From an uncultured virus (IMG/VR IMGVR_UViG_3300025759_000060) (Duplodnaviria; Heunggongvirae; Uroviricota; Caudoviricetes), in IMG/VR virus record IMGVR_UViG_3300025759_000060: 20,000 nt of DNA. One strand, written 5' to 3'. Made by a program: the position numbers and the translations under genes. The notes beneath the pieces were generated by a model. That model saw only the letters and a list, made by a program, of their open reading frames with translations, did no database searches and had not been told where the DNA came from. Below are positions 2,270-19,322 of the stretch, one piece after another (position 1 is the first letter of the stretch; every line of letters starts with the position of its first letter).

Positions 2270-2896
2270 TTAAGTATCAAATAATTTATCTAAGAATCTA
2301 TTTATAATCCATCTAATGATAACAGGTAAGATAACATAAAGAAAAATCCAAGTCAATAAAACTGACCCATATTTTTTCTCAGCGTCTTCTACAACGTTGT
2401 CGTATACAAAATTATAACATTGATCCTTTAGGGTATATCTATCAAAATAATCAGCATTATCAAAAGTAACACCTTTACCCATACACATTGTAGCCCATTG
2501 CTCTGAATATTGCAAGCATTTTTTGGCAATATCTTTGTAGGATTTTTTAGAATATTTTGCTTCTATTTCAGCATAAATATCAGCATTATTGAAATTGCAA
2601 AACTTGACGGTATCAGAAGAATCACCATAGCCAAAACTAAAGTCTGGAAAATTTCTTAACTTTATAGATCCACCTTCTTCTCCAAAAATTATTTGTTCAA
2701 TGTAAGCATAGAACGTAATAAGTTTTGTTATCTCTGCTCTAGGTTGATTTTCGCCAAACTTTATAATTGTTACATTGTCACCATGACTTATGTTTGCAAC
2801 GCAAGGGCTTTCTGCTTTAATCTTAAATCCTTTAACTTCTATTCCATTTCCATTAAAAATATTCCTAAGACTTATATTTATTTCTTTTGGTGACAT
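2270..2896 (-). CDS. Hypothetical protein with C-terminal transmembrane anchor
   Basis: ORF track 2270..2923; ATG at 2896 (MSPKEI) directly follows the upstream stop; hydrophobic VLLTWIFLYVILPVIIRWII near C-terminus. Confidence 0.75.
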   Translation of the reverse strand: MSPKEINISLRNIFNGNGIEVKGFKIKAESPCVANISHGDNVTIIKFGENQPRAEITKLITFYAYIEQIIFGEEGGSIKLRNFPDFSFGYGDSSDTVKFCNFNNADIYAEIEAKYSKKSYKDIAKKCLQYSEQWATMCMGKGVTFDNADYFDRYTLKDQCYNFVYDNVVEDAEKKYGSVLLTWIFLYVILPVIIRWIINRFLDKLFDT

Positions 2897-2898
2897 AT

Positions 2899-3366
2899 TT
2901 ATCCCCCATGTATTAATACCCACGCTACAGCCATAAAATACTCATTTAGTTCTGCTTTCTCAGATTCTTTTAAAGAATGATTGTCATCTCCCATAATTTC
3001 TTTTAACAGTTTTACTATCTCTTCTGCTAGCCCGTCATATTTATCAACTAATGTGTCTTTAAAAAATATTTTTCCAGCAAGAGTATAAACATCATTTACT
3101 TGTTGCGAAGTGGCATTATAGTCTAAAACTCTTTTTGCAAACTCATAGTTAAAAATAGCCAACTTAGCTTTGTCGCTTGGGTCTGTAACAAGTTCAGAAA
3201 ATATTTCAACCCTATTTATAACATCTTCGTGAGGTTTATCTATGCTCAAAATTTTTACTGGTGGCGGTTCTGGATTTGGTTTAGGAGTTTGATCAAGCAA
3301 ATCTAATAAGCCTCCACCGAAAAAACTATATAGCAACAAACCTACTGCTAGTATATTTTTATACAT
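2899..3366 (-). CDS. Membrane-anchored/exported protein with Pro-rich linker and helical domain
   Basis: Likely ATG at 3366 (MYKNILAVGLLLYSFFGGG) just after upstream stop at 3368; linker TPKPNPEPPP. Confidence 0.75.
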   Translation of the reverse strand: MYKNILAVGLLLYSFFGGGLLDLLDQTPKPNPEPPPVKILSIDKPHEDVINRVEIFSELVTDPSDKAKLAIFNYEFAKRVLDYNATSQQVNDVYTLAGKIFFKDTLVDKYDGLAEEIVKLLKEIMGDDNHSLKESEKAELNEYFMAVAWVLIHGG

Positions 3367-3367
3367 T

Positions 3368-3655
3368 TTATTTCTCCGCATTAAATAGTGGAAAAACTTC
3401 ATCTAGCTTTTCCACTGCTTGGTCTAATCCTTCTTCTGTACATTTCTCTTTTAGGGAGTACCATAGGTCTACGATTTCCAAAAAAGGCTTATCAGCAACC
3501 TCGTCTTCCTCGATGATCACCTTGTTCTTTTTTAGAAAATTAAAGCTAAACATACTTTTAACCTTTCCGAATACATAAGACCAACTAATATTTGAAAATA
3601 GTAACACAGACGCTATTGCAATCGCTGCTACTCTTAAAATCATTTCTGTTTCCAT
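3368..3655 (-). CDS. Small N-terminally anchored membrane protein
   Basis: 95 aa; hydrophobic ILRVAAIAIASVLLFSNISW then charged helical tail; GGAG RBS upstream. Confidence 0.75.
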   Translation of the reverse strand: METEMILRVAAIAIASVLLFSNISWSYVFGKVKSMFSFNFLKKNKVIIEEDEVADKPFLEIVDLWYSLKEKCTEEGLDQAVEKLDEVFPLFNAEK

Positions 3656-3668
3656 AATGTCTCCAATC

Positions 3669-4052
3669 CTAATGTTTATAAATTAATAATCCTTCTTTTA
3701 GTATTTTAGCCGTTCCCTCTCCGTGGTATGGGCATTTTGTTTTGTGACCGTCCCCTTGTTTTATCCAGCCTGATCCACCACAAGGGCATTTATCTGGATC
3801 TGGGTTTGGCCCAATAATGTCTGGAGTCGGATTATCTTCTTTAAATATTTCTGAACCCGCTTTGTCGAAAGCAACTTTAACGTCTGCCTTCCATGTTTCT
3901 ATGTAATCTTCATACATGTTTGTAATATCTTCAGTGCTACATCCACAATCTACAGGTCCACCGTCAATAACAGACTGCCTGTTATCCATTATCATAACCG
4001 TTGCAGCTATACTGATTACAGAGATAAAAACAAGCTCAAGATGTTTTTTCAT
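3669..4052 (-). CDS. Exported/anchored protein with Cys/His-rich putative Zn-binding motif
   Basis: Signal-like MKKHLELVFISVISIAATVM; DCGC and CPCGGSGWIKQGDGHKTKCPYH, resembling a DnaJ CxxCxGxG knuckle. Confidence 0.7.
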   Translation of the reverse strand: MKKHLELVFISVISIAATVMIMDNRQSVIDGGPVDCGCSTEDITNMYEDYIETWKADVKVAFDKAGSEIFKEDNPTPDIIGPNPDPDKCPCGGSGWIKQGDGHKTKCPYHGEGTAKILKEGLLIYKH

Positions 4053-4270
4053 GGATCGCCTCCGTCCACGGCATTATAATAAGCAATATCATCAAATCGC
4101 CCTGTCAATCCAGCTTGAATGGCTGTATAACTAGGACTAGTATCTAGAGTTGCATCAATTGTATTAAACTCGCCAGTTGCTAGGCAGGTTACAACAACAG
4201 TGCCATTTTTTGTTGCTTCTACAGAAGTGTTTGGATTTGTTACTACGTCAGTTGTTGAGACTACGCCCAT
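4049..4270 (-). CDS. Small Thr/Val-rich putative virion protein
   Basis: 73 aa, GGAG RBS, beta-rich composition, terminal VDGGDP. Confidence 0.65.
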   Translation of the reverse strand: MGVVSTTDVVTNPNTSVEATKNGTVVVTCLATGEFNTIDATLDTSPSYTAIQAGLTGRFDDIAYYNAVDGGDP

Positions 4271-4281
4271 TGTAAATTCTC

Positions 4282-4389
4282 CTATGGTTTAGTATAAATT
4301 AATTTTGAACCTTTGTATATTTTTTCTATAATTTTACCTTCTACGTATGCAGAAGGAATGTTGTTTGAACCCTTTTTTACGTTAGCCAC
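4282..4389 (-). CDS. Unannotated 35-aa ORF (MANVKKGSNNIPSAYVEGKIIEKIYKGSKLIYTKP), tail-protein-like motif
   Basis: Translated by hand: GGAG RBS + GTG at 4389, TAG at 4282; fills the gap between neighbours; KIYKGSKLIY resembles the k-i-Y-x-G-x-x-l-v-W/Y motif of phage tail proteins. Confidence 0.7.
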   Translation of the reverse strand: MANVKKGSNNIPSAYVEGKIIEKIYKGSKLIYTKP

Positions 4390-4398
4390 AGAACACTC

Positions 4399-4701
4399 CT
4401 AAACAACAAAGTAAACTGTGTTTTCATCCTTAGTTAGTGTTGCGTATGACGCAGCATCTGTAAAAACTAAGTTTTGAACACCGCTAACGTTAACACCCTC
4501 TTCTGCACCAGCCTGTACTATGTCTGACTTTATTGCTATTCCAGAAAGGTTTGAAAAAGTTGTAACTCCATCACCGATTTTTAGAGTATTGTCATTTATA
4601 GAGAATCCGGGTTCTCCCTCTCCTAAAACTGTATTAGCAGAAGCCCACTCAGAAGCAGAGCCTCTACGTAATTGCACCCTTGTGTTTGAATAATCTGGCA
4701 T
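4399..4701 (-). CDS. Miniature tail-fibre-related protein with Mtd_N (major tropism determinant N-terminal)-like domain
   Basis: RVQLRRGSASEWASANTVLGEGEPG...LKIGDGVTTFSNL is the Mtd_N signature; C-terminal YATLTKDENTVYFV resembles a common phage tail C-terminal motif. Confidence 0.85.
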   Translation of the reverse strand: MPDYSNTRVQLRRGSASEWASANTVLGEGEPGFSINDNTLKIGDGVTTFSNLSGIAIKSDIVQAGAEEGVNVSGVQNLVFTDAASYATLTKDENTVYFVV

Positions 4702-5621
4702 TAAAACACCTCATCTATCGTAAAGTCTACTTTTCGTGGTGGGAATCCATCCACATCGCTGAACGCCCAAGCTCCATTTTGATTTAGCATACCTCTAGCA
4801 TCTTTTTCTCTAATCCAAAATGATCCGTCTGGTTGATCAAATCGTTTAGGACCACCGTTAAATGCCCCCCAACTATTTTGAATTAAGAATAATGTTTCTT
4901 TATATATTTCATGCGAATCGTCCATGGAAATCCAAGCCATTGCGTGGTTCCATGACCCTGATCTACGAGCTATACCATTAGAGTCTCTACGTGAGGAAAA
5001 TCCGTAATTACTACACACGCTTAAAGCATACCCGTTAGCTATAGCATCTCTAGCTTCTTCGACAGATTTTACTAAACTAATTGTTTTTACTTGGTGCTTC
5101 TTGCCCTCTTCTATTACGTCTCTAGGAACGCCAGATCTTCCCCAACTTGTTCCTATTCTACTATTATATTTAGAAAAGTCAACGAATCCATAATCTTTTC
5201 TAACTAGGATGCCCCCGTTCTGAGCAACAAATCTTGCAGCAACAGAACAGGACATCCCTTGACCGCCATGACCGCGAGATCCATATATTGCTTCGGTTGC
5301 TCCTCTCGCCACAAATTCTTCTGCTTGACCACCAACAATTTCATGACATCTTGTAACATCTACGGCATTACGTGTCGAATGCGAGACGCAATCGCCTGTA
5401 GTTTGTCTTTCGTGAGGTCCAAAACTTGGATCATGTTTTATAGCAGACTTATGCAGTAAAGCAACTTTACCCTTGCCACTACTATATAAATCAGAGGCAG
5501 CAACTCCAAAGAGGGGGTGTGGCAACTCTCCTAAAAGTTTATCAGTATCTTCTGGATCGCACCACGAACCTACAAGTCCGTCCTTATAGGCTTTTAATAT
5601 TTCTTGCGGTGTATTAAACAT
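4701..5621 (-). CDS. Papain-like (C1-type) cysteine peptidase without signal peptide
   Basis: QTTGDCVSH (oxyanion Gln, catalytic Cys), WNHAM (His), IQNSWG (Asn), followed by GSFWI. Confidence 0.85.
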   Translation of the reverse strand: MFNTPQEILKAYKDGLVGSWCDPEDTDKLLGELPHPLFGVAASDLYSSGKGKVALLHKSAIKHDPSFGPHERQTTGDCVSHSTRNAVDVTRCHEIVGGQAEEFVARGATEAIYGSRGHGGQGMSCSVAARFVAQNGGILVRKDYGFVDFSKYNSRIGTSWGRSGVPRDVIEEGKKHQVKTISLVKSVEEARDAIANGYALSVCSNYGFSSRRDSNGIARRSGSWNHAMAWISMDDSHEIYKETLFLIQNSWGAFNGGPKRFDQPDGSFWIREKDARGMLNQNGAWAFSDVDGFPPRKVDFTIDEVF

Positions 5622-5624
5622 TTT

Positions 5625-5846
5625 TTACTCCGACGCATTGTTTTTTGCCCACTTAACTACAGTATTAATTACAACTGCTGCAATTGGTACAAGCATTACG
5701 CCCATATTTCCAAGATCTAGATTACCAAGATTTTCACCTAGATAAGTAAGACCAGCAGCTAAAGCTACAAGTGCTGTATTTTTTGCAATATCTACAACGT
5801 CGGCTACATTAAGAGTGAACGCTGGCGAATTATTTTTATCTGACAT
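5625..5846 (-). CDS. Holin-like two-TM small membrane protein
   Basis: 73 aa; TM1 TALVALAAGLTYLG, TM2 MGVMLVPIAAVVINTVV, basic tail KWAK; immediately upstream of the peptidase. Confidence 0.6.
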   Translation of the reverse strand: MSDKNNSPAFTLNVADVVDIAKNTALVALAAGLTYLGENLGNLDLGNMGVMLVPIAAVVINTVVKWAKNNASE

Positions 5847-5848
5847 TT

Positions 5849-6439
5849 TTATACCTCTTCAGTTTTTGAAACACTTACTAAAAATCCTCCGTGCTTATCC
5901 TCATCTATGCGATACGGATAACCTAAAAATCTTATTTCTTCTCCATCGAAATTTTTTGTTGGTCTTGAGAATCTTCTGTTCATTGTTAGGCAAGACATAA
6001 ATTCTTTTAAGACTTCTTCTCTTTCGTCTTCATGGATAATATTTAACCAATCAAAACCCTCAAGACTTGCTCCACCTATTGGCAAGAACTTAAAAAAATT
6101 TGCATTGCTCCATGTCATTCTTCCGTCTTCGTCTGTTTCAAACAGTGCAGCACCGCTGTAATGTAAAGCAGCCTTAGTTCTTTGGATGATAACTTTTTGT
6201 CGTTTTTCTATTCTTTCGCAGCTTTTGCCCATAGATATTATAGCATCTTTTAAGCTACTACCACCATTAGTTGTAAGTTCTTTTTTTATTTCGTTTACAG
6301 ATTCTATAAAGAAATCTTGATTTTTGCATAGTTTTACAATTGGTTTAAGAAATTTTTTCCATAATATGGTTATAAGACCAATCGCTCCACTCAAACCTCC
6401 AAATATAATTGTAATTACTTCTGGATTTAATTCTGTCAC
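5849..6439 (-). CDS. TM + NGGSS coiled-coil (holin-associated) protein fused to a C-terminal PAS domain
   Basis: GTG start after GAGGGG RBS; TM VITIIFGGLSGAIGLITILW; ELTTNGGSSLKDAI; PAS signature ALFETDEDGRMTWSN...EGFDWLNIIHEDERE. Confidence 0.8.
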   Translation of the reverse strand: MTELNPEVITIIFGGLSGAIGLITILWKKFLKPIVKLCKNQDFFIESVNEIKKELTTNGGSSLKDAIISMGKSCERIEKRQKVIIQRTKAALHYSGAALFETDEDGRMTWSNANFFKFLPIGGASLEGFDWLNIIHEDEREEVLKEFMSCLTMNRRFSRPTKNFDGEEIRFLGYPYRIDEDKHGGFLVSVSKTEEV

Positions 6440-6456: not shown

Positions 6457-6492
6457 GAAAATAAAAGACACGCCCCCCTTGGAGGGCGTATC
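6457..6492 (-). terminator. Intrinsic terminator after the 222-aa gene
   Basis: Minus strand GATACGCCCTC-CAAG-GGGGGCGTGTC followed by TTTTATTTT. Confidence 0.85.
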
Positions 6493-6511
6493 CCTTTGCT
6501 AAAACAAAATA

Positions 6512-7180
6512 TTAAGAAGACGTATCTGTTGCGTCTTCAAATGCATCTCTAGCTTTGTACTCGTCCGTAGTTGCCTTGCCAAGACCACCAAAGTGGTAGG
6601 TAAGTTCACCCGGAACTCCTCTAGTTGGACTAGCTGCTTGATCTGTAGCAGCCGTGCTGCCATCCTTCTGTACAAAATTCTGAGCATCGCCAGCATTTGA
6701 TCCCTTGGTCCTGCCCGGAACAACACCGCTACTAGGAACAGCAAGGACATCAAAAGCTACATCGGCAGCACTTCCAAGTCTGCGAGTAGACGATATTCTG
6801 TGGATACTATCTTGACCAACGCTATCATACTGAGCGCCGGGGATGGTTAGTAAGGTTGAGGCATCGTTATTAATTTTGCCAGCACCTTCTGATCCAGCAG
6901 CCTTAATAATGAAATTCCTCTCTCCCCTTGCTGGACTATACGCCAGCCCCCCAGTGCCACCAGCCTTGGCTGTTGTAACACCTTGAGGATCTTCAAATAA
7001 ACCTCCATCACCACCGTCATTAGCTTTGACTTTTGATCCATACTCAGAGCCTGTTGCAAGCTCATTTGGATTAAGTGTGTCAGTAATAGGACTATCTGAT
7101 GCTGGTGTGCCTGCGTTGGTGACTGTGCCGCCATCAACTTTTTCAACACCGCCAGCTTGTTTTGCAGCTGTAGTAGACAT
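6512..7180 (-). CDS. Gly/Ala/Thr/Asp-rich putative virion structural (decoration-like) protein
   Basis: 222 aa, no Cys or Trp, small-residue-rich; GGAG RBS, own leader and terminator suggest high expression; function inferred only. Confidence 0.55.
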   Translation of the reverse strand: MSTTAAKQAGGVEKVDGGTVTNAGTPASDSPITDTLNPNELATGSEYGSKVKANDGGDGGLFEDPQGVTTAKAGGTGGLAYSPARGERNFIIKAAGSEGAGKINNDASTLLTIPGAQYDSVGQDSIHRISSTRRLGSAADVAFDVLAVPSSGVVPGRTKGSNAGDAQNFVQKDGSTAATDQAASPTRGVPGELTYHFGGLGKATTDEYKARDAFEDATDTSS

Positions 7181-12365: not shown

Positions 12366-12782
12366 TTAATTATCCATGCGTTGTTTAATATATGATGAAC
12401 TAATATACTCAGTATAAGGAATATACAAAAGCACAATACCGTTTTGTTCTAACCAATCTTCAGTAAAGCCCATCTGTTTATAGTAGTTTTTACCAACCCA
12501 ATCAGTTCCAACAGCTATGATATCTGGATTTTCGTTCAGTATAGCGGGTTTGCTGTCTGAACCGCCAATATTTTCTACAACTTTATCTACGTATTTACAA
12601 TTATATAAAGCTGTTTCTCGTTCTCCGTATGTCATTCTAGGATATTCTAGTTTATAGTCAAATACAAATTCGTTAGTATTGAGACTGACTATAACTTCAT
12701 CGGATATTGCGTTGCATTTCTTGAGAAAATTTTCATGGCCCCAATGAAATAAATCAAACGTCCCTCCAGTATATAGTTTCAT
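12366..12782 (-). CDS. Cytidylyltransferase-family nucleotidyltransferase (TagD/RfaE-like)
   Basis: GTFDLFHWGH (HxGH), ER...CKYVDKV, PDIIAVGTDW, PYTEYISSS. Confidence 0.88.
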   Translation of the reverse strand: MKLYTGGTFDLFHWGHENFLKKCNAISDEVIVSLNTNEFVFDYKLEYPRMTYGERETALYNCKYVDKVVENIGGSDSKPAILNENPDIIAVGTDWVGKNYYKQMGFTEDWLEQNGIVLLYIPYTEYISSSYIKQRMDN

Positions 12783-13702
12783 ATAGCAAAAATCCTCATC
12801 ATAACGGATAAAGTCTTATCTGTGTGTTTTTCTCTTAGGGTGTGATGAAATATGGGGTCTTTATCAATAAAGTATTGTATAGTATAATCTTCAAAATCTA
12901 CCATATCATAATTTATATCATGGCAATCGCAGTCAATACCACTATTCGTGCATATGATTCTCTTTTGATTATCTTGTTTTATGCTGGGGTCTTTTAATTT
13001 GCTGATTATCTTTGGGTCAGATCGAAGATAACAATCAAACAAAAACTCATCATTGCAAACAATGTTCTTGCTGTATTTTACATTAGGGAAATTTTTATAA
13101 TATGATAGTATATCTTCTCTTTTGTTGAAATTTAAATTATTCTCATCTAGGAAATTAATGAAGCCCGTACAGAACTCTCTATTAAACAATGAGAATCCTG
13201 TATTGCTAATTAAGTGCTGATGCGTAGCATTAGGAAATCTGCTATTTGCGAAATCCATTTTAGATATAATATAATTGTATGAACTTTGTCTTTTGTCTTT
13301 ATTTTTCGCATGTGCTAATCTTCTCTGCCATAAATCTTCCCGTGTCCCTAGATAGCAACACTTAATATAATTCTCACGTAAATTAAAGCAATCCCTTATG
13401 TCAGTATCTCTGTTGAGTATAAGCGTGTCGAGATCTATAAATATTCCATAATCATTATCAGAATTTAAGAAATCGTACATCCTGTACATCTTTCTCATGG
13501 CGGGATTTTGTTTCCAAGTATTTTTTCCGCTTTCTATCGTGGCAGATAAAGCCATCTGTACTCTTGGGTCGTTAAACCTTATAACTTCTAAAGGTATATC
13601 GTATTTTGAAAAATAATTCTTTATATTACTTTCTGAAAGTGACTGCCAGCAATCGCTGGTTAAATTTTCAAAAGTATTACAAAGATATGCAGATATTTTC
13701 AT
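12779..13702 (-). CDS. GT-A fold glycosyltransferase-like protein (GT34/GT8-like)
   Basis: K...FLNSDNDYGIFIDLD (DxD), NTGFSLF, NDE motifs. Confidence 0.65.
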   Translation of the reverse strand: MKISAYLCNTFENLTSDCWQSLSESNIKNYFSKYDIPLEVIRFNDPRVQMALSATIESGKNTWKQNPAMRKMYRMYDFLNSDNDYGIFIDLDTLILNRDTDIRDCFNLRENYIKCCYLGTREDLWQRRLAHAKNKDKRQSSYNYIISKMDFANSRFPNATHQHLISNTGFSLFNREFCTGFINFLDENNLNFNKREDILSYYKNFPNVKYSKNIVCNDEFLFDCYLRSDPKIISKLKDPSIKQDNQKRIICTNSGIDCDCHDINYDMVDFEDYTIQYFIDKDPIFHHTLREKHTDKTLSVMMRIFAI

Positions 13703-13703
13703 A

Positions 13704-14345
13704 TTAGTAAGTATATTTAAATTCAGTAATTAAGTCAAGACATCTTTGTTGCACTAGGTTTTTTGTTTCTTCATTATAGTATGCTGTATAGTGTTCGTGG
13801 TCAGTGTTATTTATAACTATCGGTTCAGCCTCCTGAATTTTAATTCCTGACATTCTATTTTCTATACATTTACCAATTTCATCAAGATCATTCTTCATGT
13901 TTTCCATTTTCCCAATATAATTTATTTGATCATATAAATAGTCCTGTTGTTTATGAAAAGCAGTTTTGATCCAAGTTTCAAAATCATTGTCGGCGCATGG
14001 TTTAGCCCAATCTAATTTGTCTTGTTTATATCTTAACTTTCCAAACTCATAAGAAGAAACATACCAATCCCAAGGATTTCTTACAAACGTAAAAACAAAA
14101 TAGTCATTTACATCTATATTCAAATCTTCTAGATAGCGTTTTAAATCGCCATAATTAGAATGCTGTGGCATGTCCGTTGAGTTTCCCCACTTCGCAAGGT
14201 CTTTAAATAAAGTAAACTCTTCTGCTGGAATATGATTAATGTTTGGTACATATCCACACATCTTCATCATTTCGTGAGCGATGGAACTGCCACCCGTTTT
14301 TGGTATATGTAAAAAAACAAATTTATATTTGTGAGAAATTATCAC
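13704..14345 (-). CDS. PAPS-dependent sulfotransferase (Sulfotransfer_2 family)
   Basis: FLHIPKTGGSSI (5'-PSB) and FVRNPWDWYVSSY (3'-PB). Confidence 0.9.
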   Translation of the reverse strand: MIISHKYKFVFLHIPKTGGSSIAHEMMKMCGYVPNINHIPAEEFTLFKDLAKWGNSTDMPQHSNYGDLKRYLEDLNIDVNDYFVFTFVRNPWDWYVSSYEFGKLRYKQDKLDWAKPCADNDFETWIKTAFHKQQDYLYDQINYIGKMENMKNDLDEIGKCIENRMSGIKIQEAEPIVINNTDHEHYTAYYNEETKNLVQQRCLDLITEFKYTY

Positions 14346-15178
14346 GACGTTACCTCTTCAATATTAAATTCGGTCTCAATGTGTGGTAAATCTTTTAGGA
14401 AATCTTCCTTGTTTTTAAAATTATCTTCTTGATTTTTCCTTGGTCGAGTTTGTTTAACTATTGGTGAAACCTGAATTGGATAATTTTCATCTATATTTTT
14501 TAAAAAACTAGATGCATCATTTTTTGTTATCTGTGAATATTCTAATAAGTGATAATTTCTATTTTTAGTTTTTAGCAAAGAAAAGTAATCTCTGTATATA
14601 TTTTTGCAAGCATTGACTCTAGCTTCATAATCTTTAAGATTCCATTCTACCGGAGCATCGTGCTTTGGGTCGTATACTTCTCCTCCAACCCATTGTCCCG
14701 ATATCATAGATCGTTCAAAACTAATATGTATATCAATTAATGACTTTCTGTATAAGACTATTATGGTATCGCAACTATCAATTATATCTGGAAAAAATTC
14801 AGCAATTGTATACGGCCTATGATAAGTTGGTACAATCTTACAGAAAAAATATTTATAATTAAGATTAAACAAGGTTTTTACTATACTGTCAAACATGTCC
14901 ATTGCGTATGGCTGATAATCAAACCAAGGTTTTTCTTGCATATGACGTTTTGTACTACCTTGCACGGATTCTGCCAATCTCCACAAGAATTCACGATGAG
15001 ACTTGGGGAGAGGTAAACCGTTGTCTGAAAAGACTCTGTGCATTACTTTAAAATGATAGGGGATATAGTAATTGAATATTTCACCACAAGAATAACTATA
15101 TTTATCTATAGATTTGAAATGATTAATCAAAAAACTAGAACCAGTTCTACCATTAGCTAATATGCAAGTTTTTTTCAT
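14342..15178 (-). CDS. Sulfotransferase, Stf0-like
   Basis: ATG at 15178 in ATGA overlap; ILANGRTGSSFL, GEIFN, LYRKSLIDIHIS, KQT motifs. Confidence 0.75.
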   Translation of the reverse strand: MKKTCILANGRTGSSFLINHFKSIDKYSYSCGEIFNYYIPYHFKVMHRVFSDNGLPLPKSHREFLWRLAESVQGSTKRHMQEKPWFDYQPYAMDMFDSIVKTLFNLNYKYFFCKIVPTYHRPYTIAEFFPDIIDSCDTIIVLYRKSLIDIHISFERSMISGQWVGGEVYDPKHDAPVEWNLKDYEARVNACKNIYRDYFSLLKTKNRNYHLLEYSQITKNDASSFLKNIDENYPIQVSPIVKQTRPRKNQEDNFKNKEDFLKDLPHIETEFNIEEVTS

Positions 15179-16047
15179 TTCTTTGTTGTGTTGCTCCTGT
15201 CTTGGAAGTAACATTTTATTTCTTCTTGTAAATCTTTATACAGGTTAGGCAGTTTGTATAGTCCGTTTTGTTCGTCAATCTCTAAAAGTTTTGGATTAAA
15301 TTTGTAGTTATCTAAAATTATTTCTCTCTCTATGTAACCCCTATCAAGTTTATCTCCATGATAAAAATGCTCTAGATCGCCTTCGCAGTAACCAATACTG
15401 TAAGTATCCTTAATAGGTTGTCTTTCAGAATAGTCTAGAAAATCAAGCACAATATTTGGAGTGCAACAACCAACTAGTTGACTATTTAAAAAATCACCCA
15501 TAGCACCAACTATTTGCATAGCATCATTAGATCCCAATATATGTCTATCATAAAAACCTTCGGGTATATAACTGCGATTTATACCCCACACAAGACCTAA
15601 AGCAAAATGTTCGTCAATAAGTTTAGTACTTCGTTCAAAGTCGTATATATTTTTACCATAACCACGACAATTTAAGACATTGTTAGATCCTTCAGTCTCG
15701 AAAACATTTTCAAATCCCTGCACCATTAAATGTTCATCTAATTTTTTATCCATCTCGTCTAGCCAATCAGCATTATTAAATTTTAAATCTGTATCTAGCC
15801 AAACAATTTTATCATATTCGGGTGGTAAAGTTTCTAGAATGATATTGAAAGTTCTTTCTTTCTGCCACAGTATATTGTTTTGATTAGCTAGAATTTTGTG
15901 ACTATCACTAATGCAAAAATCACCTTCTCTTAATGCAACCTCCGCAGTAATTATGGGGTGATTAAAATTTTCTCTAAACTTTTCGTAAAGTTCTCGTCTT
16001 AATTTATTACCATTGTAGTTAAAGTAAGAACATATACAAGCTATCAT
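15175..16047 (-). CDS. Glycosyltransferase-like protein (DxD)
   Basis: ATG at 16047 in ATGA overlap; YFN, LWQKER..N, VWLDTD, HFYHG. Confidence 0.65.
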   Translation of the reverse strand: MIACICSYFNYNGNKLRRELYEKFRENFNHPIITAEVALREGDFCISDSHKILANQNNILWQKERTFNIILETLPPEYDKIVWLDTDLKFNNADWLDEMDKKLDEHLMVQGFENVFETEGSNNVLNCRGYGKNIYDFERSTKLIDEHFALGLVWGINRSYIPEGFYDRHILGSNDAMQIVGAMGDFLNSQLVGCCTPNIVLDFLDYSERQPIKDTYSIGYCEGDLEHFYHGDKLDRGYIEREIILDNYKFNPKLLEIDEQNGLYKLPNLYKDLQEEIKCYFQDRSNTTKK

Positions 16048-16496
16048 TTTTGCCCCTCTTCCCATTTCTGCCTTATTCTTAACATACTAACGAATGGAAG
16101 TGCTTTCCTGCATCTTTTTATCGCTTCCATTCTCTGAGGGTAACTTTCTATGATATTAGGATTTATAGGTGAAGAAAATATTAGATGTACATAATGTGAT
16201 ATAATTCTAGATAATTCTACGTCATTGTTTAATGGAGATTTATATCTTTTTTCGTTTTCCTTCATAAGTTCTAGCATAAGATCCGTTAATATAGACAGTT
16301 GAATAATATAGTTATTTTTATATTTTGTATAGTGAACTATGTTATGATAGTAAAGCCTTTCCTTGTCAGAAAAACCTTTTTCTTTACAATATGGTTGGTA
16401 AAAATCTTTCACCTCTGGATTTTTCAACAGATATTCTTCTTCATCAAAATTTTTCTTGACTTTATTAGTTCTGTAAAAATCTTCTATAGATATCAT
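16044..16496 (-). CDS. Hypothetical protein with FDxxxYLxxNPxV motif
   Basis: FDEEEYLLKNPEV...H motif recalled from accessory repeats of glycosyltransferases. Confidence 0.6.
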   Translation of the reverse strand: MISIEDFYRTNKVKKNFDEEEYLLKNPEVKDFYQPYCKEKGFSDKERLYYHNIVHYTKYKNNYIIQLSILTDLMLELMKENEKRYKSPLNNDVELSRIISHYVHLIFSSPINPNIIESYPQRMEAIKRCRKALPFVSMLRIRQKWEEGQK

Positions 16497-18071: not shown

Positions 18072-18346
18072 AATCCAGTATTAATCCATATCAATTGTTG
18101 TACGTACATAACTAAACCAATCATGATTATTGTTAAAACAATAGGTGCAATCCAGTGATGAAGGAGTATGTCAGAACGTATATGAACAGACCAATAATCA
18201 CTGATCGCATTGTCAATTTCATCATCAGAGTAACTTTCATTTTTTAATACCCATCTTAATTGTTCTTCTGTTAATTGATCTTGTTCATCCCAGTATCTTT
18301 TTGCCATTACTAAAAGTCTTTCATCTTCATCTATATTTCTATACAT
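18068..18346 (-). CDS. Small protein with C-terminal TM helix
   Basis: 92 aa; WIAPIVLTIIMIGLVMYV. Confidence 0.7.
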   Translation of the reverse strand: MYRNIDEDERLLVMAKRYWDEQDQLTEEQLRWVLKNESYSDDEIDNAISDYWSVHIRSDILLHHWIAPIVLTIIMIGLVMYVQQLIWINTGL

Positions 18347-19265
18347 TTCCTTTCGTCAATTCTACCGCCTTGGTAGTAATCCAATTGTTTAAATCTACAG
18401 AAGGTTTCCATTTTAAAATGTTCTTAGCTTTAGTTATATCCGCTTTGGTATGCCTTGCTTCTCCTTTTCTTGGAGGTATATGAATGTGATCTGCTGTACC
18501 ACCCCCTACCATTTTAACTAAATCTAATACGCTATAACTATTACCTGTTCCTATGTTAAATAATTCTCCACAAGCTTCTTTAGGTGCGGTTATAGCCTTT
18601 ATATTAGCCTCTACGACATCAGACACATGTGTGTAGTCTCTAGTTTGTAAACCATCTCCAACAACAGTCATAGGTCTTTCCTCTGAGTATTGTTTTTGAA
18701 ATAGTCCAACAACTGGAGCGTATTGACCTTTAGTTGGTTGTCTTTCTCCGTAAACGTTAAAATATCTAAAAGTAATTGTTTCCAATCCATATAGATTGTA
18801 ATACATTCTAGCAAATTCTTCACCAGCAGTTTTTGTTATAGAGTATGGATTTAAACAATCTTTTTTCATATCTTCTCTAGAGGGAGTGGGGTTAGCTAAT
18901 CCATAAGCGGAGGATGTAGAAGAATAAATAACTCTTTTCACATCATTTTGTAGTGAATACTGTAAAACCCTGCACGTTCCGAGAACATTAGTTTTTATTG
19001 CTAATTCTGGATTTTCTAATGCTGGTTGTATTCTTGATTCTGCTGCTAAATGAAAAACGTAATCTACATTTTTAAATAGATTTTCTATATTATTAAATGT
19101 TATAGATACTTTGTGATAATTCGCTTTGTCGTTGTAATAAAAATTATCATTACATGTTGCTGATTCGTCGTCAATAACAACAACTTCATAGCCAAGATCA
19201 ACACATCTATCTACGACGTGAGACCCAATGAAACCACAACCGCCTGTTACTAATATTTTAGTCAT
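18339..19265 (-). CDS. NAD-dependent NDP-sugar epimerase/dehydratase (extended SDR, GalE/WbpP-like)
   Basis: Likely ATG at 19265 (MTKILVTGGCGFIGSH); HLAA, SSTSSAYG, YSITK (YxxxK), RYFNVYG, GDGLQTRDYTHV. Confidence 0.92.
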   Translation of the reverse strand: MTKILVTGGCGFIGSHVVDRCVDLGYEVVVIDDESATCNDNFYYNDKANYHKVSITFNNIENLFKNVDYVFHLAAESRIQPALENPELAIKTNVLGTCRVLQYSLQNDVKRVIYSSTSSAYGLANPTPSREDMKKDCLNPYSITKTAGEEFARMYYNLYGLETITFRYFNVYGERQPTKGQYAPVVGLFQKQYSEERPMTVVGDGLQTRDYTHVSDVVEANIKAITAPKEACGELFNIGTGNSYSVLDLVKMVGGGTADHIHIPPRKGEARHTKADITKAKNILKWKPSVDLNNWITTKAVELTKGNV

Positions 19266-19286
19266 AATTTTTCCTGAATAAAGACC

Positions 19287-19322
19287 GGGGTGGGGCAAGC
19301 CACACACTACTTGCCCCACCCC
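19287..19322 (-). terminator. GC-rich 13-bp perfect hairpin, terminator or RNA-processing element
   Basis: GGGGTGGGGCAAG / CTTGCCCCACCCC with 10-nt loop; followed on the minus strand by GGTCTTTATT (weak U-tract). Confidence 0.6.

Follow-up and report, generated by a model that had tools for sequence, protein, structure and literature searches.

Phage lysis is taught as the joint work of a holin and a peptidoglycan hydrolase, and classical holin-endolysin(-spanin) cassettes such as lambda S-R-Rz/Rz1 and T4 t/e follow this plan, with the lambda lysis genes lying just upstream of terminase. Other described arrangements include the signal-anchor-release (SAR) endolysin and pinholin systems, exemplified by S21-68/R21 of phage 21 and by P1 Lyz with its thiol-disulfide activation. 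PeiW and PeiP are pseudomurein endoisopeptidases, and in insect viruses the baculovirus V-cath, a C1A cathepsin made as a proenzyme secreted via the endoplasmic reticulum, acts with a chitinase to liquefy tissue. Here we describe a minus-strand gene cassette at positions 2270–6439 of a 20,000-nucleotide stretch of DNA (hereafter the window) from an uncultured virus of the Caudoviricetes (IMG/VR record IMGVR_UViG_3300025759_000060), in which a gene for a small holin-like protein directly precedes that of a papain-fold cysteine peptidase. We know of no full C1-type protease with its own partners in phage lysis, and literature searches on planctomycete phages, on DUF1501 in phages and on papain, holin or endolysin-less lysis found no relevant paper.

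Like the holin-endolysin cassettes, this locus places a small membrane protein gene directly before a signal-less soluble enzyme and follows it with membrane proteins; it differs from them in that its enzyme is a protease and not muralytic, in having no lipoprotein spanin, and in adding docking and zinc-ribbon/thioredoxin partners and an upstream gene for a PAS-domain protein. Likenesses to the SAR/pinholin systems are that the enzyme is N-terminally anchored in relatives, that the holin-like protein combines a weak Ala/Gly-rich first transmembrane domain (TMD1) with a strong second one (TMD2), and that a thiol-disulfide element lies beside a cysteine enzyme, whereas the window's enzyme is anchor-free and of another enzyme class than SAR endolysins, and release or disulfide caging is here conjectural. 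The two-lobe fold and the placing of the catalytic residues are those of xylellain from Xylella fastidiosa (PDB 3OIS) and of the C1A papain/cathepsin enzymes, but the window's peptidase differs from these in being phage-encoded, in lacking a signal or I29-type prodomain, and in having dedicated membrane partners and a docking tail. As with V-cath, a virus-encoded C1 protease would (by our proposal) break down host structures at the end of infection, although the gene contexts share no homology. Papain-superfamily Cys-His domains also occur in phage lysins, including the mycobacteriophage LysA N4 (RipA-like) and N5 (C39-like) domains, CHAP, NlpC/P60 and Amidase_5, as described in parts of PMC3314691 and PMC10318531. 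These are minimal alpha+beta domains directed at wall peptides, mostly in multidomain lysins with wall-binding domains, whereas the window's peptidase is a full two-lobe C1-type enzyme with no wall-binding domain.

We think it somewhat more probable than otherwise that the cassette forms a module for envelope-directed lysis, carried by a phage whose probable host is a planctomycete. What computation provides is the fold of the peptidase, its partners, the linkage of the genes and the lack of a recognisable alternative lysis enzyme. Overall, the interpretation given in a preliminary description of this DNA, which had proposed a non-canonical lysis cassette from the letters alone, is partly supported. 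The genes on which the argument rests are listed below; here and later, conservation refers to 80 IMG/VR loci.

4701..5621, minus strand: cysteine peptidase, papain-fold (C1-like, xylellain-type), 306 aa, signal-less; Q73/C78/H226/N249-S250-W251; tail 294–306 is the predicted docking peptide
5625..5846, minus strand: 73-aa holin-like protein; weak TMD1, strong TMD2, charged C-terminal tail
5849..6439, minus strand: TM-NGGSS-PAS protein, 196 aa, bitopic; N-terminal transmembrane (TM) segment, long helices broken at NGGSS, C-terminal PAS domain
3669..4052, minus strand: zinc-ribbon-like signal-anchored protein, 127 aa; Cys-rich motif C.C.GSGWI..GDGH...CP
3368..3655, minus strand: N-terminally anchored protein, 95 aa; kept in 27/80 loci
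2899..3402, minus strand: signal-anchored helical protein, ~155–167 aa; start at 3402, 3381 or 3366
2270..2923, minus strand: tail-anchored protein; C-terminal TM 189–207; in 15/80 loci

On its predicted structure, the peptidase is a complete papain-family (C1-like) enzyme by fold and active site. The AlphaFold2 (AF2) model, built with 21 homologues in the alignment, has a mean predicted local distance difference test score (pLDDT) of 78 and a predicted template modelling score of 0.83, and in it helix 78–91 begins at C78. Residues Q73, C78, H226, N249, S250 and W251 are invariant in 21 sequences, and we take the catalytic residues, matched by motif, to correspond to papain Q19/C25/H159/N175. 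In structural comparison with VIA, the model reached Z 20.7 to xylellain (225 residues aligned, root-mean-square deviation 2.9) and, against papain 1ppn, a value of Z 17.6 (196 aligned, 2.6; model 50–290 on papain 1–212), and the 50 C1 entries listed spanned Z 17.4–20.7 with 195–234 residues aligned; Foldseek matched xylellain at E 4.8e-11, among 247 matches at E ≤ 0.001. Sequence searches gave no Pfam family at E ≤ 0.1 (Peptidase_C1 included), no PHROG match and no PDB sequence match at E ≤ 10. Because the Pfam and PDB sequence searches were empty, the peptidase is placed as a remote, fold-level member of C1. It has no I29-type prodomain; the segment from residue ~18–20 to ~49 aligns with the last part of the pro-regions of procathepsin, pro-papain and related zymogen structures. 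The N-terminus is not hydrophobic, so that the earlier call of a signal-less C1-type cysteine peptidase is upheld in both of its parts. The family is large and unnamed, with 1,785 clusters at 90% identity and at least 1,680 representatives at 50%, and a tblastn search of 50,697 cultured-phage records found no match.

Relatives of the peptidase carry intein-sized insertions at two sites (P0121–P0270; L098:8001-10742; L066/L068), the first directly before the catalytic Cys78, which is thus the +1 residue, and the second three residues past the catalytic His226. Among 150 representatives, 31 have an insertion at the first site, 19 at the second and 6 at both, with 4 more mis-binned near the first, and Pfam detected an Intein or LAGLIDADG domain in 11 of the 25 long forms searched. 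The window's own copy is intein-free. Since inteins sit at both catalytic residues, the peptidase appears to be a strongly conserved phage gene.

The preliminary description had recognised no muramidase, amidase, M15, M23 or CHAP gene in the window, and a Pfam search of its 35 open reading frames (ORFs) likewise found no lysozyme, amidase, M15, M23 or CHAP family. The scan for a canonical endolysin that it had suggested was run in relatives. None of the 217 ORFs of a complete relative (G003; 166,833 bp, CheckV 100%) matched known lysin families in Pfam, and a PHROG search of 142 of its ORFs returned no endolysin, holin or spanin, the 'lysis' category being filled by rIIA/rIIB only. The closest large relative (G001; 135.8 kb), whose peptidase is 91% identical to that of the window, gave no match to known lysin families in the 135 ORFs scanned of 162 called, and PF00959 was not found in five large relatives. 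The peptidase itself matches no known peptidoglycan hydrolase family in Pfam or PHROG, its fold being C1 and not that of lysozyme, amidase, M15, M23, CHAP or NlpC/P60. The large terminase subunit of G003 shares only 24% identity with its counterpart in the nearest cultured phage. Both G003 and G001 encode a ClpP-type head protease beside terminase, and head maturation therefore does not require the peptidase; the case named beforehand as fatal to a lytic role, a virion maturation protease, thus finds its place already taken.

If the peptidase is the enzyme of the module, the proteins encoded downstream offer an indication of where it works. Long relatives of the peptidase are fusions, in which an N-terminal TM segment and a domain like the 2899–3402 product precede the peptidase. 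The N-terminal part of 13 such relatives aligned with the 2899–3402 family in hhalign at 98.6% probability (E 5.9e-16, 117 columns), a relationship that was significant only in profile comparison, the pairwise BLASTP of the 2899 product against fused P0165 giving E 0.28. In some fused relatives the peptidase is followed by the zinc-ribbon motif of 3669–4052 and a thioredoxin-like domain with CxxC. P0166 matches the zinc-ribbon motif with its C-terminus (BLASTP E 1e-9), and CxxC thioredoxin-like domains occur in P0186, in P0201 and in a G003 neighbour; in G003 the gene after the peptidase encodes a signal-anchored protein with the 3669 motif and a WCGPC thioredoxin domain. Three loci (L063, L065 and L069) have a 315-aa ORF just past the peptidase that matches both 2899 and 3669 (L065, L069) or 3669 alone (L063).

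Structure prediction adds to the fusions. A complex of the peptidase with residues 45–167 of the 2899 product scored an ipSAE of 0.74 against 0.20 for the best control, with contact agreement of at least 78% and partner pLDDT of at least 87; of the solved complexes 116 of 157 attain this ipSAE mark, as do 2 of 215 mismatched pairs, benchmark counts that hold only roughly because our own alignments were used. The predicted interface is the C-terminal tail of the peptidase (294–306), away from the active site, which led us to reject a prodomain-like blocking of the active site by the 2899 domain. An Atlas search with the 2899–3402 product gave no usable match. From the fusions and the complex model, the 2899–3402 and 3669–4052 products are read as partner modules of the peptidase, with the 2899 product predicted to bind its tail.

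Export of these partners is suggested by positively charged N-flanks, by Pro-rich linkers past the TM segment in the 2899 family and the fused forms, and by the classic signal peptides on the partner copies of a Planctomycetota-resident element (G009). We infer that both partner modules would lie outside the cytoplasm; because they are exported, the peptidase most likely acts there too. A signal-anchor on the enzyme itself is absent from the window's peptidase and present in the fused relatives and in the Planctomycetota-resident copies. That the four downstream proteins are membrane-anchored, as first described, agrees with the N-terminal TM segments of 3669–4052, 3368–3655 and 2899–3402 and the C-terminal one of 2270–2923, whose real start codon, to judge from its G001 orthologue, is probably the ATG at 2896. 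Their proposed spanin-like work fares less well, since a lipobox Cys is missing from the N-termini of all four and two of them, 2899–3402 and 3669–4052, are the peptidase partners that are fused to it elsewhere.

The location of the partners also bears on the proposal that the cassette encodes a cytoplasmic, membrane-tethered protease for host takeover or anti-defence, which would cleave host proteins with the PAS protein as its regulator. The absence of a signal peptide from the peptidase, the predicted cytoplasmic location of the PAS domain and the proximity of a phage sigma-factor gene and of replication genes would all suit such a role. It nonetheless appears quite unlikely, because the docking partner, the redox partner and the fused forms all begin with a signal-anchor or a cleavable signal that places their bulk outside, and a signal-bearing thioredoxin/zinc-ribbon partner makes little sense for a cytoplasmic enzyme.

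The candidate for release of the peptidase is the 73-aa protein, described beforehand as having two TM segments and found here to have one strong TM segment (residues 46–64) plus a weaker Ala/Gly-rich hydrophobic stretch (~24–38) that is conserved in 23 homologues. Its C-terminal tail, KWAKNNASE, is charged, and the layout is that of a holin gene: a small protein with TMDs and a charged tail, whose stop lies 3 nt ahead of the candidate lysis enzyme. Atlas feature similarity, which serves as a lead only, placed it near clusters named 'Holin family protein' (0.95, 0.94) and r1t_holin (0.88). From its holin-like features, we infer that the protein may permeabilise the membrane as a holin does. 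In a sublineage that lacks the gene, an unrelated 59-aa ORF that has two hydrophobic stretches is found three genes downstream of the peptidase (L074:12123-12302); Pfam found no match for it or for other neighbours, and it may be a non-orthologous holin replacement.

The remaining member of the upstream pair bears out the TM-NGGSS-PAS architecture first read from its letters. A hydrophobic helix spans residues 8–26, N58, G59, G60 and S62 are invariant or nearly so in 20 homologues, and the AF2 model (pLDDT 79) has a PAS core at residues 98–192 with the five-stranded sheet and flanking helices of that fold. Foldseek gave 148 PDB matches at E ≤ 0.001, of which all those listed are PAS/LOV proteins, the best being RsLOV (E 3e-6); the Pfam scores fall under gathering (PAS_3 19.3 vs 25.6 bits; PAS 17.4 vs 22.6 bits). 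By the positive-inside rule the PAS domain is predicted to be cytoplasmic. The preliminary description had cast this protein as the holin, and the corresponding account, in which the four downstream proteins would be spanins, has in its favour that all the membrane proteins form one tight run. A protein with a single TM segment, a 170-residue soluble part predicted to be cytoplasmic in its PAS domain, and no holin homology in Pfam, PHROG or Foldseek is a poor candidate for a holin, however, and the missing lipoboxes and the assignment of two of the four proteins as peptidase partners speak against spanins, so that we regard this wiring as extremely doubtful.

The cassette genes belong together by position as well as by content. 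The PAS ORF stops 2 nt before the start of the 73-aa ORF, which in turn stops 3 nt before the peptidase start; the peptidase overlaps ORF 4399–4701 by 1 nt, and ORFs 4049–4270 and 3669–4052 overlap by 4 nt. These distances, with a 15-pair hairpin ahead of the first gene, match the terminator followed by a tight run that had been noticed at the outset. Synteny in relatives, which had been proposed as a check, showed the genes to be linked across the lineage: of the 73 loci with room for adjacency to be counted, 36 have the two-TM (2TM) gene and 35 the PAS gene next to the peptidase on its upstream side, and 54 of 64 have a homologue of 3669 or 2899 downstream. The recurring order in the window's sublineage is glycosyltransferase, sigma factor, Gly-rich gene, PAS, 2TM and peptidase, and other sublineages are without a detectable PAS/2TM pair upstream of the peptidase. 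Three further features complete the layout.

6463..6496, minus strand: intrinsic-terminator-like hairpin, 15 pairs plus T-run; ends the Gly-rich gene 6512–7180 and precedes the first cassette ORF
4399..4701, minus strand: Mtd_N plus tail-tip mini ORF, 100 aa; Mtd_N E 1.3e-13, above cut-off
4049..4270, minus strand: 73-aa soluble protein, no domain match; far edge of the fibre island, in 18/80 loci

Of the two mini tail-domain ORFs in the preliminary description, 4399–4701 does carry a tail domain (Mtd_N), whereas 4049–4270 has no domain match. Neither is cassette core: between the peptidase and the block of membrane proteins lies a variable island of tail-fibre genes that ranges from 0 to ~8 kb in relatives, and, judged by comparison with these, 4399–4701 is a remnant of that island and stands outside the conserved core. 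The presence of fibre genes right after the peptidase in many relatives, of the remnant in the window, and of structural proteins of 1400–4400 aa encoded in these genomes would fit a virion- or fibre-linked protease that processes giant structural proteins or digests a protein surface layer at entry. We consider such a role very unlikely, given that the fibre island is absent at the peptidase site in the complete genome G003, that the peptidase carries no domain for attachment to a fibre or baseplate, that the fused forms are membrane-anchored and not like virion proteins, and that a ClpP-type prohead protease is present.

The giant ORFs are of interest in themselves. FG-GAP-repeat ORFs of 4,411 aa in G003 (L081:944-14179) and 3,961 aa in G001 (L187:3918-15803) lie beside several ORFs of 1,400–1,800 aa and are presumably structural or adhesin-like. 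The same G003 genome has an ARAGORN-called phage tmRNA (tag GVENYAMAA; L085:15084-15400) among four tRNA genes.

The window looks like one piece of the genome of a large, uncultured water phage whose host is probably a planctomycete. Planctomycetota had been guessed as hosts before any search, and the relatives support the guess. For the DUF1501 gene of G003, species-representative genomes yielded at least 597 relatives; the best 80 share 62–77% identity with it and are nearly all labelled Planctomycetota. DUF1501 is also present in G001 and G004. G003 has three DUF1501 copies within L083:15051-19532, and in G001 a PSCyt1/PSCyt2/PSD1 protein adjoins DUF1501 (L183:964-3282 and L183:3272-4570), these being planctomycete signature genes. 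PMC6802176 offers no precedent for the use of DUF1501 in the search for planctomycete phages, as its text does not contain the term. The peptidase profile found copies in 2 of 5 and then in 6 of 401 genomes, a search made in Planctomycetota only, so that no enrichment is claimed.

A resident copy is informative on gene order. In a 7.8-Mb Pirellulaceae chromosome (G009), a prophage-like element of ~23 kb (L199:3750 to L200:13058) with host genes on both sides carries a trio of a 2899-like gene, the peptidase and a zinc-ribbon/thioredoxin-like gene, placed between a fibre gene and the genes for the terminase large subunit (TerL), portal, capsid and tube, just upstream of terminase. Pfam found no known endolysin in 37 ORFs of the element and its flanking host genes. 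A 122-aa ORF with a TM segment and a coiled coil follows the trio (L199:15756-16124).

This element helps in weighing the proposal that an exported or anchored protease complex remodels the envelope, for example by destroying receptors or surface proteins in superinfection exclusion or by preparing assembly or exit, while lysis falls to an unrecognised enzyme. Exported partners and membrane-anchored fused forms would be expected of such a complex, the genes around the cassette in the big phages are of early or middle type, and G001 has further exported enzymes and many unannotated ORFs. We consider this proposal unlikely, since the window's peptidase is signal-less and directly behind a holin-like gene, the Pirellulaceae trio lies just upstream of terminase as do the lambda lysis genes, and the search of two large genomes yielded no other lysis enzyme. 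The exported enzymes of G001 are a thioredoxin (WCSPC) and a trypsin-like serine protease (L183:586-960 and L183:14918-15724); the N-termini of both resemble signal peptides, and they may be further envelope-directed enzymes.

For a lysis module, which is the reading that we favour, the following course can be proposed. The signal-less peptidase would build up in the cytoplasm until the 73-aa two-TM protein opens the cytoplasmic membrane and frees it. The freed enzyme would dock through its C-terminal tail on the anchored 2899–3402 protein at the outer face of the membrane and, once docked, would cut envelope proteins or peptide cross-links, while the Cys-rich/thioredoxin partner might keep its thiol reduced or open disulfide cross-links. 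In the weakest step, timing would be tuned by the TM-PAS protein, a candidate sensor in the cytoplasm. A passage in PMC2754498 describes the planctomycete wall as a proteinaceous sacculus that has disulfide bonds. A broader proposal, possible but on the doubtful side, is that planctomycete phages lyse without a muralytic endolysin: a papain-family protease, holin-released or in some lineages Sec-anchored, would dock on an exported partner, a zinc-ribbon/thioredoxin partner would open disulfides so that a protein-rich, disulfide-stabilised envelope is digested, and a cytoplasmic PAS sensor would gate the holin by energy or redox state.

Several points weigh against a lysis module. All of the support is computational, and the evidence on the host comes from relatives and not from the window's own 20 kb. 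C1 peptidases are not known to cleave peptidoglycan, and planctomycetes do have some of it; the relevant part of PMC5814848 places its discovery in 2015 and its abundance as low. Many ORFs of G003 and G001 are without annotation and structure prediction covered two proteins, so a cryptic wall hydrolase is possible. Holin families matched none of the 23 members of the 73-aa family in Pfam, and a PHROG scan of the window's protein, the only member scanned, was also empty. Pinholins are not known to let folded proteins through, and the weak Ala/Gly-rich TMD1 of the 73-aa protein recalls pinholins, yet the peptidase that would have to pass is without a signal. No adjacency to the peptidase was detectable for the 2TM gene in 37 of 73 loci and for the PAS gene in 38 of 73 (two of these being intein artefacts), the window's copy of 3669–4052 has no thioredoxin domain, and in large phages the cassette sits among nucleotide-metabolism genes.

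The surroundings of the cassette in the window are in keeping with a large phage genome. The 20 kb have 35% G+C with all plausible genes on the minus strand, and encode a class II ribonucleotide reductase, dCMP deaminase, single-stranded DNA-binding protein, GMP reductase, a sugar-nucleotide/sulfotransferase cluster and a sigma-factor-like protein. Terminator-like sites between 2000 and 8000 number 9 against 2.8 expected from shuffles, and no shared promoter motif was obvious in the intergenic spacers of the window. A variable block at 12366–16065 and 18339–19319 (both minus strand), with cytidylyltransferase, sulfotransferase and genes of unknown function plus an NAD-dependent epimerase, is kept in only 0–3 of 80 loci, and this poor conservation suggests strain-specific glycan modification.

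The Gly-rich gene that ends at the cassette hairpin (6512–7180, minus strand) encodes a 222-aa Gly/Ala/Thr-rich protein without a family match that is kept in 37 of 80 loci, and its closing hairpin is the strongest terminator hairpin of the region. It is also the part most frequent in RNA-library contigs (4 of 4 runs, with DNA carry-over possible). Among pieces of at least 99% identity, from three studies, the Gly-rich gene occurs in all 3 runs and the 3669–4052 gene in two (X3 and X4); only X3 has the peptidase and PAS genes, and a relative of 90–95% identity spans most of the stretch. Because of the possible DNA carry-over, and because contigs give neither level nor timing and stretches without cover are uninformative, these data were not used as evidence of expression.

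By its sequences, the module would resemble a holin-endolysin cassette in its working while fitting no known endolysin or spanin family. If the proposed role is correct, a widespread family of peptidases with docking and redox partners would be a different enzymatic answer to lysis and, on the broader proposal, a route based on a protease and a reductase and suited to an unusual bacterial wall. In practical terms, it would provide an enzyme set for opening planctomycete cells, as well as marker genes for assigning uncultured phages to planctomycete hosts. Its analysis would also shed light on what holds the planctomycete envelope together, where the debate between a proteinaceous sacculus and peptidoglycan is reflected in parts of PMC2754498 and PMC5814848.

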